Positions 33,260-42,350 of a stretch of 64,000 nt of DNA are shown one piece after another. The stretch is from an uncultured Prevotella sp. GTDB taxonomy: Bacteria; Bacteroidota; Bacteroidia; Bacteroidales; Bacteroidaceae. The first letter of the stretch is position 1. The number at the start of each line of letters is the position of its first letter. The translations under genes were made by a program, and so were the position numbers. The notes beneath the pieces were generated by a model, which did not search any database, was not told the origin of the DNA, and saw only the letters and a program-made list of their open reading frames with translations. The DNA is taken from assembly GCA_900316295.1 (NCBI GenBank), contig ONCJ01000005.1, forward strand, positions 8,962-72,961. The letters run 5' to 3'.

Positions 33260-34870
33260 ATGAATAAGCAAAAGATTATCATTCTTGATTTCGGTTCGCA
33301 GACCACTCAGCTGATAGGTCGCAGGGTTCGCGAGCTCGATACGTTTTGTGAGATTTTGCCCTACAACAAGTTTCCCGTAGGCGACGAGTCGGTTATCGGA
33401 GTGATCCTCAGCGGTTCGCCCTATAGCGTCCACGACCCCGAAGCCTTCAAGGTAGACCTCAGCCAGTTTGTCGGCAAGGTGCCAGTGCTGGGAATATGCT
33501 ATGGAGCACAGTTTATCTCCTATGCCAACGGTGGCAAGGTAGAGAAGGCTGACTCACGCGAGTACGGACGTGCCAACCTGCAGACGGTGGACACGCAGAA
33601 CCCACTGTTCAAGGGCTTCGAGCAGCATTCACAGGTGTGGATGAGCCATGGCGACACCATCACCGCCATTCCCGACGGCTACGAGTGCATCGCCTCTACT
33701 GCCGACGTGAAGTTTGCAGCATATTCTAACGGTAAGGATATTTGGGCCGTACAGTTCCATCCCGAGGTGTTCCACTCGCTTCAGGGCACCCAGCTGCTCC
33801 GCAACTTCGTCGTAGACATCTGCGGCTCGCGTCAGGACTGGAGCGCCGCCTCCTTCGTCGACACCACCGTGGCAGAGCTGAAGGAGCAGATTGGCAACGA
33901 CCGCGTCATCCTTGGACTATCGGGCGGAGTTGATTCCAGCGTTGCTGCTGTACTGCTGAACAAGGCCATAGGCAACCGCCTCACCTGTATCTTCGTTGAC
34001 CACGGCATGCTGCGCAAGAACGAGTTCCAGCAGGTCATGGAGGACTACAAGGTCCTCGGTCTGAACGTTATCGGTGTCGATGCCAGCGAGAAGTTTTTCA
34101 GCGACCTTGCAGGAGTAACCGACCCCGAGCAGAAACGTAAGATTATTGGTCGCGACTTCATCGAAGTGTTCAATGCCGAGGCTCGTAAGATTACCGATGC
34201 CAAATGGCTTGCACAGGGCACCATCTATCCCGACCGCATCGAGTCGCTCAACATCACAGGAAAGGTCATTAAGAGCCACCACAACGTCGGAGGACTGCCC
34301 GAGGAGATGCACCTGCAGCTCTGCGAGCCCCTGAAGTGGCTGTTCAAGGACGAGGTGCGCCGCGTGGGCCGTCAGATGGGCATGCCCGAGCACCTCATCA
34401 CCCGTCACCCCTTCCCCGGTCCAGGACTTGCCGTGCGCATCCTTGGCGACATCACCCCCGAGAAGGTACGCGTTCTTCAGGATGCCGACGACATATACAT
34501 CCGTGGTTTGCGCGAATATAAGGTCAGACTCTCAGGCGAGGAGGCCCGCCGCGTCCTTGCCGCTGGCGTGCCAGCCCAGATGCAGGATGGCGAGATAGAG
34601 GTATCCCTCTACGACCAGATATGGCAGGCAGGCGCCGTGCTACTCTCCACCGTCCGCAGTGTCGGTGTTATGGGCGACGAGCGCACATACGAGAACCCCG
34701 TAGCCCTGCGTGCCGTCACCAGTACCGATGCCATGACCGCCGACTGGGCACACCTGCCATACGACTTCATGGCGAAGGTCTCCAACGAGATCATCAACAA
34801 GGTGCGTGGAGTCAACCGCGTATGCTATGACATCTCTTCAAAGCCACCCTCGACAATAGAGTGGGAATGA
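33260..34870 (+). CDS. guaA: GMP synthase (glutamine-hydrolysing)
   Basis: [42 protein letters not shown]. Confidence 0.98.
34836..34870 (+). repeat. attL-like direct repeat (guaA 3' end)
   Basis: CTTCAAAGCCACCCTCGACAATAGAGTGGGAATGA. Confidence 0.95.
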
Positions 34871-35476: not shown

Positions 35477-36820
35477 ATGGACAGCACTTCGTCGTTTTCC
35501 GAGAGTCAACAGATGTTTTCGCATGCCGAACGGCTGCAAGTAGGCGGCACCACCTGCGAGTGCTTTCGTGTGAAGATGTATGGCAAGTTGCACTTCTTGA
35601 AACGGCTGAAGCCTGAACTGCGTACCAATCCCCACTATGTTGCTGCCCTGCAAAAGGAGTTTGAGACAGGCTATCGCCTCGACCATCCCCACCTGGTACA
35701 CTATGCAGCCAAGACCGACGATGGCGTCTTGATGGACTATGTCGATGGTGAGACGCTCAGCCAGTTTGTAAAACATCATCCCGACTACTTCCGCAATCGC
35801 AAGAATGCCGACCGCTTCCTCCGTCAGCTGCTCAGCGTGGTGGGCTATCTGCACGAACACCAGGTAGTACACTTAGACCTGAAACCAGACAATATCCTGA
35901 TAACCCGCATAGACTATGATGTCGTGCTCGTCGACTTAGGCTATTGCTATACCGACAGCTATATCGACACGAAAGGTCGAACGGACAAATATGCCGCACC
36001 CGAACAGATAGGCGGTTCGGCAAAACCCGATGCCCGGACGGACATCTATGCCATTGGCCGCATACTGCAGACGCTACCCTGTGCCGATATATATAATAAG
36101 GTGATACGTAGGTGTACGGCAACCAATCCCTCTATGCGCTATCAGCGTGTCGCCGATATTGATGTGGCAATCAGCAGAAGGCATCCTTACTGGTTGGTCG
36201 TTGCCATCATTATGGTGTGCATAGTGTTGTCAATAGTTCTCTTTTGGCGAAATCCTTTCCAAAAGGCACTGGCTCCATCACATCAGCATAATGCCGATAA
36301 AGACTCCGTGAATACAGTCATTCCTGTTCAGTCGTCAGACATTGAGGATTCTTCGTCCCAGACGACCAAACTACCCATACCCCAAATGACCAGTAGCCAA
36401 CGGTCAGTGAGTCCTCAGCCTCAACCAGAAGCCCATTCCTCAAAGCCAGAGCCTTCTGTTCCTAACCCCCATTCAACAAAGGCGGATCTTCCAGCTGCTG
36501 ATACACCTTCCTCTTCCATTAGCTATACAGCAGTCGATGTTGCTCAGGTGCATCGTTTATTGGACGACGCCATTCGTCCCATTTACGAACAATACATGGG
36601 CTCATATCGTAATGCCGATTATTACGCTATGAATCAGTCTGAGATGAAAGCATACGATCTCCAGCATGTCGCATTCGGAGAAGCCTGTATGCGAAAATAT
36701 CAAGAATTGTGGCAGAAGAACCAGCAAAGGTTCGACAAAGAACTCTTCTCCAATGAGTTCGAGAAGGTTCGCGAGTACTACGACAGTCAGACATTCCTGC
36801 CGTCTCGTAAGAAGCAGTAA
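35477..36820 (+). CDS. Membrane-anchored Ser/Thr protein kinase
   Basis: FLKRLK, VHLDLKPDNIL, DLG, YAAPE, DIYAIG, then a TM helix and a Pro/Ser-rich linker. Confidence 0.9.
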   Translation: MDSTSSFSESQQMFSHAERLQVGGTTCECFRVKMYGKLHFLKRLKPELRTNPHYVAALQKEFETGYRLDHPHLVHYAAKTDDGVLMDYVDGETLSQFVKHHPDYFRNRKNADRFLRQLLSVVGYLHEHQVVHLDLKPDNILITRIDYDVVLVDLGYCYTDSYIDTKGRTDKYAAPEQIGGSAKPDARTDIYAIGRILQTLPCADIYNKVIRRCTATNPSMRYQRVADIDVAISRRHPYWLVVAIIMVCIVLSIVLFWRNPFQKALAPSHQHNADKDSVNTVIPVQSSDIEDSSSQTTKLPIPQMTSSQRSVSPQPQPEAHSSKPEPSVPNPHSTKADLPAADTPSSSISYTAVDVAQVHRLLDDAIRPIYEQYMGSYRNADYYAMNQSEMKAYDLQHVAFGEACMRKYQELWQKNQQRFDKELFSNEFEKVREYYDSQTFLPSRKKQ

Positions 36821-36971
36821 AGGCTCTGCCAACCTTGTTCAAGTGGATGAAATGGATGATTGCCCTTTCCAATAGTTTGTTTATCTTTGTGGCAAGTTAA
36901 ATCCTTAAAGTTCAAAAACAATGATAATGAAAAAAGTCGCTCACAAATTTGCGTTTCTGAAAAATACTTCT

Positions 36972-36979
36972 TATATTTG
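36972..36979 (+). promoter_or_regulatory. -7 promoter box TATATTTG
   Basis: TAnnTTTG consensus directly before the structured leader. Confidence 0.65.
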
Positions 36980-36982
36980 CAG

Positions 36983-37265
36983 TGCCGCATAAATAATTGC
37001 GGCAGACATAATTAGGAAGCGTTTAGCTATTCCATAATGGTGAATCTCGACAACTCACTGTAAGGAAGGAATACAGAAACGCCAACCTGAGGTTAGTATC
37101 TATGTATTAATCTACATATACTGCCTGAGGTGTGAGCGACTTTTCTTATTCTCCTTACAGGCAGTCGAGAGCCTACCATTAGAATATGTTAAGTAGGCTC
37201 ACACTTCTTTTTGTGCCTTTAACAAAGAAATCTACTAACCGCATCCGATGAGCCGAGGGATGCAG
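36983..37265 (+). ncRNA. Candidate structured RNA or cis-regulatory leader
   Basis: Nested complementary blocks forming a ~150-nt interrupted stem, plus 5' and 3' hairpins and mutually exclusive pairings (see findings). Confidence 0.55.
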
Positions 37266-37279
37266 AAATTGTTGTTGTT

Positions 37280-37507
37280 ATGGATAAGAATAGAGTTTAT
37301 TGTCTTATTAGTACAGTAAAAGATTGGTCAAACGAAAGAAAAAAAGATGCAATCTGTATTCTTGAAAGTCTTCGTGATTGTTTTTTATCAGATGAGTGCC
37401 TTTTTCAAAATGTAGAAGAAGATGGAAAAAACACTATGTCTGAAGAGATTTTAGTTGCCACTGAATTGACGGAGATAATTAACCAAATAAAAGAATCAAT
37501 TCAATAA
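37280..37507 (+). CDS. Small hypothetical protein
   Basis: 75-aa AT-rich ORF directly after the structured leader. Confidence 0.6.
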   Translation: MDKNRVYCLISTVKDWSNERKKDAICILESLRDCFLSDECLFQNVEEDGKNTMSEEILVATELTEIINQIKESIQ

Positions 37508-37528
37508 TATAATAATAATGGTACATGT

Positions 37529-37990
37529 ATGTTAGATTGGATTCAAATGGGACTGCTCGTCACCGCATTAATAACTATTGTTGTGTCTTCTTATTGGAGT
37601 GCAAAAACAATAAATGCGACTCAAAAACAGGCAAAGAGGCAATACGAATTTCAGTTTTTTGCAGAATATACGAAACGCTATCAAGATCTTATGTTGAAAA
37701 TGCCAGCTGATTTGGATACGTCTTCTGTTTTCAATATAGATGTTGACATTTATATGCGTCTATATTTTGACTTGTGTAGTGAAGAATACTACTTACACAC
37801 AAAAGGTGTTATTGATGATGTCGTTTGGGGACTATGGACTGAAGGTATTCAGATGGCTTTGAAAAAGAATAATTATAGAATAGCGTGGGAGTTGTTGGGA
37901 GAAAACTATAATGACACTTCTTTTAGAAGCTATATGAGTAATTTGATAAGAAAGAATGAACGTTACTCGAAGAATACACATAACGTCTAA
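37529..37990 (+). CDS. Single-TM hypothetical protein (DUF4760-like)
   Basis: N-terminal TM helix, EYTKRYQDL, YFDLCSEEYYL...GVID..VW..W. Confidence 0.7.
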   Translation: MLDWIQMGLLVTALITIVVSSYWSAKTINATQKQAKRQYEFQFFAEYTKRYQDLMLKMPADLDTSSVFNIDVDIYMRLYFDLCSEEYYLHTKGVIDDVVWGLWTEGIQMALKKNNYRIAWELLGENYNDTSFRSYMSNLIRKNERYSKNTHNV

Positions 37991-38543: not shown

Positions 38544-41021
38544 ATGAAGAAATATCTATTCGCACTTGCATGCCTAATGATGATGGGCCTGCATGTTCAG
38601 GCTCAGAAATTCCTTGATTTCTACTATCAAGGAAGCGTTGTCAGTTCCGTGAATGCCTCCGATATTGACAGCATGGTCATCGGTACGAATCCCACCAACA
38701 GGACCGTGGATTTATATAAAAATGGTGATATCTTCCACAGCACGACAGCCGCCAGAGTTGACAGTGTTAAGGTGTTCAAGCCTGAAAATGCACCCTTGGT
38801 CTATCTCGGCATCATAGGTTTCAATCAGGAACTCTACAAGAAGGAATTCGGCATCTTGTCCACGAGCACCGCCAGCGGCTTTAATACCTTCGTGGGCAAC
38901 CTGACGTGCAAGGACGGCACCTTGTTATATTATGGTGTTGACAAAGCACTGGACATGCTGAAGAGCACCTCCTTCCCCACACAGGTAAGCAGCGTGAACC
39001 TCGTCACCTTCACCGATGGTCTGGACCAAGGCTCCATGATGATGAACGGCAGCTATACCACCGATGAACAATACCTCAATGCCGTCCACCAACTCATCGT
39101 CAACACCCGTGTGAAAGGTCTTCCATTGACCGCCTACTCCTTAGGTCTGAAGGGAAGCGACGTAACGAATTATACATTGTTCCAGAACAACCTGACCAAG
39201 TTGGCGAGCTCTTCCGACAAAGCCATAGAAGTCAGCAGCATGAGTGCCGTACGGACCCGCTTGCAGGAAATCTCCGACCAGATTATCAGCATCAGCAACA
39301 AGCAGACCGTCAGCATGAAGATCCCCGGTCCCAGTAATGGCACCATCATCCGTTTTACGTTCGACAATGCTACGGCAGCCAACAGCAGCATGTATATCGA
39401 AGGCACGTTCAACCTCTCCGACCGTTCATTGCGTAATGTCAAGTATTACGGCATCAATGGCGGAAGCGGAACCATCGTTCAGGGCAAACAGGAGGGTATC
39501 TTCGTCACCTATACGTTCAGCGGACTGCAACGAACAGACGGAAACGGTCTGATACCTGTAAATAGCATCAGAGAATTCTACCGTTCGTCCACCACCAATA
39601 CATGGCAGGAGAACTCAGAGTTTACTCCCGCCAACAATACCCAGACCAACATCACCCATTCCGGTGCCATCATCCTGCTAGTGCTCGACTGCTCCAGCTC
39701 ATTGGGTTCACAATTCAGCAACATGAAGAGCTATGCCCAGGATTTCATCACCCGCGTGGCGAACAATGCCGAACCCTATGAACGGCTGTTGTCACCTACG
39801 AATGTCAAGGCATCGATAGACGAAAATGATTTGGTCGTGAACGTTTCTTGGAATGGGGTGAAGTATGCTGAGAGTTACAATGTCTATCGCAGCAGCAGTT
39901 CAAATGGCACTTATGAACTGGTTGCCGAAGGAGTCACCTCAACAACCTGGACAGACAGTAGTCCATTATCGGGAAGTAACTATTACAAAGTATGTGCCGT
40001 CGGTTATGGCATCACCAGTTCTCAAAGCTCATACTCATATGTGAATGTCAGTCTTGCAGCTCCTACGCATGTCAAGGCTGTGATGGCCGAAAATGATTTG
40101 GTCGTGAACGTCTCTTGGGAAACGGTAAAGTATGCACAAAGTTACAATGTCTATCGAAGCGACAGTAAAACAGGGATGTTTGTTTTAGTTGCTGAAAATG
40201 TTACATCGACTTATTGGAAGGACAGAACTCCGTTGTCAAAACGAAATTATTATAAAGTTTCAGCATTTGGAAATGGCATGGAAAGTATAAAAGGATGGGC
40301 AGTTCCTGCAGTTCCTGCGTCTGAAGTACAGAGCTTTGCCGTAGATGGTGTAACGTTTACTATGATTAAGGTTACAGGTGGCACATTCAAAATGGGCAGT
40401 GACCGAAGCAGTGAGAATGCTACACCGATACACGATGTCACTTTATCTGACTATTATATAGGTGAGAATGAGGTAACACAGGAGCTATGGCAAGTAGTCA
40501 TGGGTTATAATCCTAGCTACCATAAAGGCTCAAAACGTCCTGTAGATAATGTGAGTTGGCAAGATTGTCAAACATTCATAAAAAAGCTGAATGAGTTGAC
40601 TGGTCATGTCTTTCGTCTTCCTACAGAGGCTGAATGGGAGTTTGCAGCGAAAGGTGGAATATGGAGTGAAGACTTCATCTATAGCGGTAGCAATGACATC
40701 GACAATGTAGCATGGTATGGTGGCAATTCATATTACTCGGGTGACTATGAAACAAAGAACGTAGGAACGAAGGCACCCAACGAACTTGGAATCTATGATA
40801 TGACAGGCAATGTAGAAGAGTATTGTCAGGATTGGTATGGTGAGTATAGTGGTTCACATCAGATAAACCCTACTGGTCCGGTGACGGGATCTAAGCATAT
40901 TCAGCGTGGCGGATCATTTGCAAGCAGAGAATTTGCTTGCACGACAACATTCCGCCATGATGATTATATAGGGCCTTTTTATTATGATGGGCTGCGTATA
41001 GTATCTATTTGTTCCAAGTGA
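38544..41021 (+). CDS. Secreted multidomain protein: permuted vWA + 2x FN3-like + FGE-sulfatase (SUMF1/CLec-fold) domain
   Basis: TFTDG and LVLDCSSS; two PTxVKA..ENDLVVNVSW..VKYA.SYNVYRS repeats; GGTFKMG, RLPTEAEWEFAAKGG, PNELGIYDMTGNVEE, RGGS. Confidence 0.88.
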   Translation: MKKYLFALACLMMMGLHVQAQKFLDFYYQGSVVSSVNASDIDSMVIGTNPTNRTVDLYKNGDIFHSTTAARVDSVKVFKPENAPLVYLGIIGFNQELYKKEFGILSTSTASGFNTFVGNLTCKDGTLLYYGVDKALDMLKSTSFPTQVSSVNLVTFTDGLDQGSMMMNGSYTTDEQYLNAVHQLIVNTRVKGLPLTAYSLGLKGSDVTNYTLFQNNLTKLASSSDKAIEVSSMSAVRTRLQEISDQIISISNKQTVSMKIPGPSNGTIIRFTFDNATAANSSMYIEGTFNLSDRSLRNVKYYGINGGSGTIVQGKQEGIFVTYTFSGLQRTDGNGLIPVNSIREFYRSSTTNTWQENSEFTPANNTQTNITHSGAIILLVLDCSSSLGSQFSNMKSYAQDFITRVANNAEPYERLLSPTNVKASIDENDLVVNVSWNGVKYAESYNVYRSSSSNGTYELVAEGVTSTTWTDSSPLSGSNYYKVCAVGYGITSSQSSYSYVNVSLAAPTHVKAVMAENDLVVNVSWETVKYAQSYNVYRSDSKTGMFVLVAENVTSTYWKDRTPLSKRNYYKVSAFGNGMESIKGWAVPAVPASEVQSFAVDGVTFTMIKVTGGTFKMGSDRSSENATPIHDVTLSDYYIGENEVTQELWQVVMGYNPSYHKGSKRPVDNVSWQDCQTFIKKLNELTGHVFRLPTEAEWEFAAKGGIWSEDFIYSGSNDIDNVAWYGGNSYYSGDYETKNVGTKAPNELGIYDMTGNVEEYCQDWYGEYSGSHQINPTGPVTGSKHIQRGGSFASREFACTTTFRHDDYIGPFYYDGLRIVSICSK

Positions 41022-42154: not shown

Positions 42155-42189
42155 CTTCAAAGCCACCCTCGACAATAGAGTGGGAATGA
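42155..42189 (+). repeat. attR-like direct repeat (copy of the guaA 3' end)
   Basis: 35/35 identical to 34836-34870. Confidence 0.95.
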
Positions 42190-42350
42190 AAAGTGGAGAG
42201 GAAAAAGAGCTGGAATAATTTGCATTTCCAGCTTTTTTCTTTATTTTTGCATGCGGAATCTTGTTGGAAGCTTCGCTTACTTCGAGGCATGAGGAGGGAG
42301 GAGGGAAGAATGTGGATGTGGAGCATCCGAAACTTAAACAACAAAACGGT

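Follow-up and report, generated by a model that had tools for sequence, protein, structure and literature searches.

What is the highly structured segment that lies between a promoter-like box and a 75-residue open reading frame (ORF) in a 7.3-kb island of a Prevotella-like bacterium? The segment, positions 36972-37279, belongs to a 64,000-nucleotide stretch of DNA, referred to here as the window, from a rumen/gut Bacteroidales metagenome-assembled genome (MAG) of 2.39 Mb that is 86.5% complete. The original prediction described about 280 nt of leader or non-coding RNA with mutually exclusive folds, and offered three explanations: an attenuator, an antisense-controlled switch of the P4 CI or C4 type, or an independent non-coding RNA of mobile elements. 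It treated the segment as a single locus. Our analysis demonstrates that the segment is one copy of a large, widespread, and uncatalogued family of structured RNAs of gut and rumen Bacteroidales, probably 5' leaders, and the attenuator fits the evidence best.

The RNA is preceded in the window by guaA, a 182-aa ORF, and a Ser/Thr kinase of the PD-T4-6 type. It is followed by ORFs of 75, 153, 189, 825, and 310 residues, of which the 189-aa protein carries a T9SS sorting tail, the 825-aa protein an FGE-sulfatase domain, and the 310-aa protein a zinc ribbon. The kinase, the leader RNA, and the downstream operon form the 7.3-kb island, which is bracketed by a perfect 35-bp direct repeat of the 3' end of guaA (34836-34870 and 42155-42189) and contains no integrase. 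The G+C content decreases to 0.33-0.36 just 3' of the RNA. Two tandem 218-nt units with 72% identity and 267-nt spacing are located inside the 825-aa ORF (39795-40279), indicating an internal repeat domain of this protein.

All the boxes, hairpins, and stems that had been predicted within 36972-37279 were located by inspection of the sequence (Table 1). The figure of about 280 nt applies to the distance from the promoter to the start codon, whereas the unit itself is shorter. The high degree of structure is borne out by the folding energy of the + strand, which is -100.3 kcal/mol compared to -69.5 +/- 4.7 kcal/mol for 100 dinucleotide shuffles (z = -6.5), none of which folded as well. The minus strand has a z-score of -5.3, as expected of a long hairpin, and the strand was therefore settled from homologues. 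G-U is the commonest state at several pair positions of the family, and the abundance of these pairs identifies the + strand as the structured one.

Table 1 Positions of the leader RNA, its parts, and the adjoining promoter boxes and ORF in the window
Feature	Position	Strand	Remarks
Upstream second -7 box TATCTTTG, candidate promoter P(up)	36882-36889	+	TAnnTTTG match; putative promoter
U box	36920-36945	+	A-run and perfect complement of I box and I-box 3' flank
Main -33 TTTG	36948-36951	+	20-nt spacer to -7 box
Main -7 box TATATTTG	36972-36979	+	TAnnTTTG, Bacteroidetes-type; predicted promoter
Unit proper	~36985 to ~37212	+	~225 nt; from likely (predicted) start to end of U-tract
P1 hairpin TGCCGCA/TGCGGCA	36983-36989 / 36998-37004	+	7 bp; all 7 pairs changed on both sides
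Conserved single-stranded GGCAGACAUA	37001-37010	+	3' of P1; invariant
P2 weak hairpin	37015-37033	+	Covariation (helix 2)
Long imperfect rod	37035-37181	+	Folding and covariation
P-base TAATGGTG/TACCATTA	37035-42 / 37174-81	+	Rod base helix; sequence varies
GAA/GCC bulge	Between P-base and P-mid	+	Rod
P-mid UCUCGAC/GUCGAGA	37045-51 / 37164-70	+	7-bp rod helix
Conserved internal loop AACUCA/GGCA	Above P-mid	+	Rod
Rod pairing CTGTAAGGA/TCCTTACAG	Inside the 37035-37181 nested stem	+	Sequence inspection
I box GAGGUGUGAGC	37127-37137	+	Internal loop of rod 3' arm; pairs with T box or U box
Local terminator hairpin GAGCCUAC/GUAGGCUC	37169-76 / 37193-200	+	Rod-base strand pairs with T region
T box GCUCACACUUC	37197-37207	+	T strand from ~37193; directly 5' of U-tract
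U-tract UUCUUUUU	37205-37212	+	End of unit
Downstream hairpin H4 GCATCC/GGATGC	37241-37263	+	Precedes ATG at 37280
T' (H4 loop UGAGCC)	37249-37254	+	Complementary to GGCUCA of T box
First operon ORF, 75 aa	37280-37507	+	No family hit; followed by ORFs up to ~42125

The search of the whole window against Rfam 15 at the gathering score produced 0 matches. Lowering the threshold to E <= 10 for positions 36700-37600 provided only chance-level matches, the best with E = 2.5, and their scores were far below gathering. C4/P4 CI antisense RNA, 6S RNA, HEARO, and the known Bacteroidales motifs in Rfam 15 were all without a match, so no Rfam 15 family claims the RNA. The antisense switch of the P4 CI or C4 type is thus unsupported, since neither an Rfam hit at E <= 10 nor a conserved antisense promoter was seen.

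Five relatives of the RNA were identified within the genus by blastn, and an exact-pattern scan of GTDB representatives returned 38 loci, about 28 of them with the whole anatomy, in genomes of Prevotella, Bacteroides, Alistipes, Marseilla, Limimorpha-like bacteria, and Rikenellaceae. A covariance model of 209 positions and 35 base pairs, which covers P1, P2, and the rod and leaves out the 3' tail, recovered all the real members and none of ten chance pattern hits. The model detected copies in 47 of 101 genomes of the genus (1-5 copies each), 25 of 120 genomes of other Bacteroidales genera, and 4 of ~78 genomes of other Bacteroidia orders. Copies within the genus are often 2-7 kb apart on one strand and form same-strand arrays. 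The highest copy number, twelve, was found in a 2.0-Mb genome of the same order. The source genome contains one copy according to both the model and blastn, and the element is therefore not a MITE or a within-genome repeat. The plasmid and phage collections contained no blastn match, which led us to reject an origin from either. The patchy and multicopy distribution, together with the position inside a 7.3-kb island here, is also incompatible with a housekeeping RNA such as a 6S-like rod. An interrupted gene or integration site considered in two genomes (G036 and G010) was rejected, because the sequences are degenerate 5'-half copies, each with a full copy ~2 kb downstream. Degenerate copies in two complete genomes (L084:9414-9613 and L086:7814-8013) are reduced to the promoter, P1, P2, and the 5' arm, without the I box and tail; each is positioned directly before a gene for a Ser/Thr kinase, and a full copy follows 2 kb downstream.

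The homologues contain the compensatory changes expected of a conserved RNA fold, and 33 of the 35 pairs of the model are changed on both sides among 63 aligned copies. Rod helices 3, 4, and 6 are paired in 96%, 99%, and 90% of cases, respectively, with double changes in 21 of 22 pairs. Standard pairs occupy 91.0% of the pair cells, compared to 62.5% after shuffling and 36-42% when the partners are slid, and the covariation score is 0.69 compared to 0.19 and ~0.09; the alignment of the 63 copies was fitted to the covariance model, which favors the pairing figures, yet the margin is very large. The P-mid helix has the form UCUSGNN/NNSCAGA across the family, with G-C to C-G swaps. The 5' strand of P2 is the conserved GGAAGCG motif, called here the 5' box, and the 3' strand of P2 has an alternative partner in GAAUA at 37182-37186. 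The upper stem and tip of the rod vary freely in length, and the tip accounts for the range of total unit lengths from ~140 to 290 nt.

The 3' part of the unit contains the strand for which several partners compete. The two mutually exclusive pairings noticed at the window locus, that of GAGCCTAC (37169) with GTAGGCTC (37193), followed by TTCTTTTT, and that of GTGTGAGC (37130) with GCTCACAC (37197), both recur in the homologues, but the local terminator hairpin is not kept consistently from clade to clade. The second pairing belongs to the helix of the I and T boxes, which is 9-16 bp long, ends exactly at the U-tract, and abuts it in nearly all full copies. At least 9 of 11 positions of the I and T boxes are paired in 96% of 50 distinct copies, compared to 65% of cross-sequence pairs, and three positions exhibit double changes (U-A/C-G, A-U/G-C, and C-G/G-C). 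The I:T helix crosses the helices of the rod, and would either coexist with them as a sharply bent pseudoknot or replace the lower rod.

Some clades have a clear local terminator hairpin, whereas in several others it is weak or missing. In the window, it has a 16-nt loop and is 4 nt away from the U-tract, and a simple terminator scan did not call a canonical terminator at this copy. The third partner of the T box is the 5' box, located ~175-210 nt upstream. The two were paired in the short-isoform minimum free energy structures of 38 of 53 copies calculated using RNAfold, and this pairing closes the whole RNA into a single zipped rod. In a contiguous-helix test, the pairing of the 5' box with T was no better than that of composition-matched shuffles (7.2 versus 6.8). 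The 3' strand of P2 pairs with GRAUAA beside the rod base over 5.7 bp, compared to 4.8 bp in shuffles, and over 6-8 bp in several clades.

A fourth partner of the T box, T', is located beyond the U-tract, in the loop of a hairpin that is 20-47 nt past it across the copies. Watson-Crick pairing of T with T' over at least 7 bp was found in 19% of own and 2.8% of cross pairs, and over at least 8 bp in 13.5% and 0.2%, respectively; T and T' covary in a subset of clades. Because T' is situated past the U-tract and covaries with T, selection probably acts on read-through transcripts; among the comparative findings, this covariation speaks most strongly for read-through being under selection. In Limimorpha-like MAGs (L021, L023, L025, L029, L031, L035, L050, and L053), another stretch, GAAUUUAGGG, is conserved 3' of the U-tract and immediately before the ATG, even though the first genes are otherwise unrelated.

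Most copies examined have a -7 box immediately 5' of the RNA. Its TAnnTTTG sequence is the consensus of Bacteroides sigma-ABfr promoters. The only + strand TAnnTTTG boxes ahead of the operon in the window begin at 36882 and 36972; there is none between 36979 and the next + strand box at 42242. The whole window contains 61 TAnnTTTG matches, compared to 30 expected. This enrichment is consistent with Bacteroidetes promoters and makes the motif useful for marking transcription units in the source MAG.

The sequence conservation of the family ends on the 5' side at the U box, which terminates just 5' of the -33 TTTG. In the window, the U box is complementary to the I box and its flank over 14 nt perfectly and 22 of 26 nt overall. 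Its position is constant, and covariation with the I box is seen in about 26 of 60 copies. Of the copies with the U box, 12 of 20 have a second TAnnTTTG located 32-117 nt (mostly 51-64 nt) 5' of the main box, compared to 9 of 37 without it. Transcripts from P(up) would carry the U box. The orientation of the upstream gene is not associated with the U box (11 same and 12 opposite with it, 16 and 13 without). The calculated duplex energies in the window are strongest for U:I (-25.4 kcal/mol), followed by I:T (-20.8), the local terminator (-15.2), and T:H4 (-10.7). With the 5' extension containing the U box added, the minimum free energy structure is no longer the zipped rod but a fold that contains the local terminator. 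The effect of the U box reads oppositely in the thermodynamic models, depending on whether the I:T helix or the local hairpin is chosen as the terminator.

About 55 of 62 copies have a co-directional ORF that begins 36-130 nt past the T box, and the remaining seven have no close downstream ORF. The 101 linked proteins belong to 73 families. They include zinc-ribbon, GYF, SPFH, MORN, Sel1, TonB_C, OmpA, BspA-LRR, WG-repeat, TM2, and CD225 proteins, as well as radical SAM proteins, a PvuRts1I/SRA methyl-directed restriction enzyme, trypsin-like proteases, T9SS surface proteins, and Ser/Thr kinases. Since the downstream genes have no common function, a ligand or signal cannot be guessed from them. 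The upstream genes are mutually unrelated (AAA_14/DUF4143, Abi_2, PIN, HipA, HigB, Bro-N, and one ORF with a tyrosine-recombinase domain), and no conserved upstream partner was found among the loci compared. The independent non-coding RNA of mobile elements offered by the original prediction retains some probability. However, the comparison of neighborhoods did not tie the family to any one mobile element or neighboring gene. A retron was rejected because there is no reverse transcriptase among the neighbors of the window copy and 60 loci, and the U/I repeats do not bracket the long hairpin. The neighboring genes required for an IscB/TnpB guide RNA or a type III antitoxin are absent.

Based on these observations, we propose that the RNA is a cis-acting terminator/antiterminator leader, in which the partner of the T box sets the choice between termination and read-through; we estimate the probability of this reading at roughly 60%. 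It is preferred because the promoter is directly 5' of the RNA, exclusive helices meet at the U-tract, a co-directional ORF follows, there is no other + strand -7 box before the operon, and T' covaries with T. Transcription from the TAnnTTTG promoter would produce two small hairpins, the long rod, and the T box directly before the U-tract. The pairings of the T box would be mutually exclusive. With the rod base, it may form the local terminator hairpin; and with the I box of the rod, a long-range helix against the U-tract. Pairing with the 5' box of P2 would instead lengthen the rod in a zipper-like manner, and no terminator would remain. The partner that wins while RNA polymerase crosses the U-tract would determine the outcome. 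A stop would release the ~225-nt RNA, and read-through would express the island operon (37280 to ~42125).

Part of the family may contain an additional layer of control, in which the U box would act as a perfect decoy for the I box. Only transcripts that begin at the second promoter farther upstream, or that read through from upstream genes, would contain the U box. We tentatively suggest that the leader could be a gate that senses promoter origin, so that transcripts would be stopped or passed according to their start point. Tandem promoters or read-through from a preceding cassette would generate the long isoform, whose U box may capture the I box and re-route the terminator strand. A signal related to the envelope or to phages could serve as the trigger, with the weak P2 hairpin or the conserved internal loops as its target. 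If the leader is such a gate, each unit would be a programmable insulator or activator for arrays of horizontally acquired Bacteroidales operons.

The ~225-nt RNA could instead be the product of an independent small RNA gene that acts in trans or binds a protein, with the downstream genes being mere neighbors. We consider this doubtful, since it does not account for the next ORF being close and strictly co-oriented in about 55 of 62 copies, the operon of the window being preceded by no other promoter box, the T:T' covariation past the U-tract, or the truncated copies in which the promoter and 5' half lie directly before kinase genes. What speaks for a small RNA gene is its own conserved promoter, the constant placement of the U-tract 3' of a conserved helix, the seven copies without a close downstream ORF, and a multicopy occurrence as in known Bacteroides small RNA families such as FopS (PMC11697453). 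The invariant single-stranded GGCAGACAUA could be a seed, but this linker lacks specific complementarity to start regions, with own pairings of 5.0 bp and cross pairings of 5.1 bp. Control at the level of translation or mRNA stability, in which the leader would always be transcribed into the operon while T:T' and H4 control access to the start region of the first gene or define a processing site, is unlikely. It would leave the conserved U-tract right after the I:T helix unexplained, T' is present in only about one third of copies, and the spacing between the T box and the ATG ranges from 27 to 132 nt. Nevertheless, H4 and T' are located 17-40 nt before the ATG and covary with T in several clades. 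Translation in Bacteroidetes is not initiated by Shine-Dalgarno sequences and depends on unstructured start regions, which would suit such a mechanism.

The U/I repeats also allow a reading at the level of DNA, as inverted repeats that flank an inverton, or with the hairpin as an integron-like site of single-strand recombination, for example of rAID-1 elements. The repeats are perfect Watson-Crick complements of 9-14 bp, ~185 bp apart, with the promoter between them, and they covary among copies. The leader stands at the head of same-strand gene arrays, one copy in Bacteroides faecichinchillae lies directly 3' of a 195-aa ORF with a tyrosine-recombinase domain, and rAID-1 clusters were described as containing a recombinase and repetitive intergenic sequences (bioRxiv 10.1101/471110). 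An inverton is disfavored because the flipped arrangement was matched in 0 of 401 genus genomes. The frequent G-U pairs make the structure strand-specific, the U box is missing from more than half of the copies, there is generally no recombinase or other conserved gene adjacent, and the conserved promoter and U-tract fit an RNA. A DNA element is therefore very unlikely. The Bacteroides faecichinchillae ORF (L036:5617-6204) encodes the catalytic domain of the recombinase only, and the adjoining leader heads an array of zinc-ribbon and LRR genes with a rAID-1-like layout.

The proposed terminator/antiterminator leader resembles in its architecture cATT, an experimentally characterized zipper-type transcriptional attenuator of the Bacillus subtilis plasmid pLS20 (Gonzalez-Alvarez et al., NAR 2026, PMC13401043), without being homologous to it. 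The order of parts within the long 5' leader is the same: a weak conserved hairpin (SL-2 of cATT, P2 here), a long imperfect stem-loop (ext-SL-3 of cATT, the rod here), and a terminator. P2, the rod, and GAGCCUAC/GUAGGCUC with the U-tract are all present in the cATT-type layout, and the terminator hairpin is non-canonical. In cATT, the weak hairpin can pair through its 3' strand with the 5' side or loop of the terminator, which lets the long stem-loop zip further and abolishes the terminator; the pairings of P2 described above may do the same here. The two have no sequence relationship, and blastn provided no plasmid match. cATT is found in Gram-positive plasmids upstream of conAn1 and the conjugation operon, whereas the leader described here precedes unrelated accessory operons in Bacteroidales chromosomes and, unlike cATT, is multicopy within genomes. 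It also has additional parts: the I box that pairs with T across the rod, the U-box decoy with the second promoter, and the T' partner.

Classical attenuators of the trp and pyr types, and riboswitch and T-box platforms, likewise contain exclusive helices that compete beside a U-tract in a promoter-proximal leader, and the helices of classical terminator/antiterminator leaders are also conserved through covariation. In contrast to them, the Bacteroidales leader has no leader peptide, recognizable aptamer, or Rfam match, its downstream genes do not share a pathway, and the tip of its main helix is free in length. GibS/FopS and the six-member BTnc020 group are, similarly to the leader, multicopy, preceded by canonical sigma-ABfr-type promoters, and distributed across Bacteroidaceae (PMC11697453). 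FopS RNAs are ~65-70 nt long and act as trans-acting repressors of susC mRNAs (PMC11697453), whereas the leader is ~225 nt long, rod-shaped, and fixed before a co-directional ORF; the differences in size and architecture exclude its identity with FopS or GibS. The recombinase-associated gene arrays of Bacteroidales called rAID-1 (Ross et al. 2019, bioRxiv 10.1101/471110), compared here by their description only, are also same-strand arrays of variable accessory genes with lower G+C content and repeated non-coding sequences, and one Bacteroides copy of the leader directly follows a recombinase-domain ORF. Most copies have no recombinase nearby, and the genes behind the leader mostly encode large membrane, surface, or defence-type proteins rather than the small immunity proteins of rAID-1.

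No description of the motif was found in the papers searched, including those on non-coding RNAs of Bacteroidales defence islands and on candidate structured RNAs of human microbiomes. The motifs of the family are absent from the first 200 of the 408 supplementary files of PMC8040213. The same study reported palindromic Bacteroidetes candidates near TPR, TonB, and radical-SAM genes, which could overlap with the leader family.

Few cis-regulatory RNAs are known for Bacteroidales, which dominate in the human gut and rumen. One conserved leader is reused before dozens of unrelated accessory operons, including those for zinc-ribbon and SPFH membrane modules, BspA-type LRR and T9SS surface proteins, and a PvuRts1I-type restriction enzyme. 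This reuse implies a shared, unrecognized control signal for horizontally acquired genes. If the leader is an attenuator, it would be a convergent instance, in an unrelated phylum, of the zipper-type design recently described in Gram-positive plasmids. The large size and rich covariation of the family make the fold, including the crossing helix, directly testable, and its cultured carriers include Bacteroides faecichinchillae JCM 17102 and Marseilla massiliensis An824. A module composed of a zinc-ribbon protein, a ~98-aa protein, an SPFH/Band-7 and GYF_2 protein, and a ~112-aa protein recurs after the leader in different genomes (L084:17163-19983, L044:2198-5014, and L030:3687-4799).
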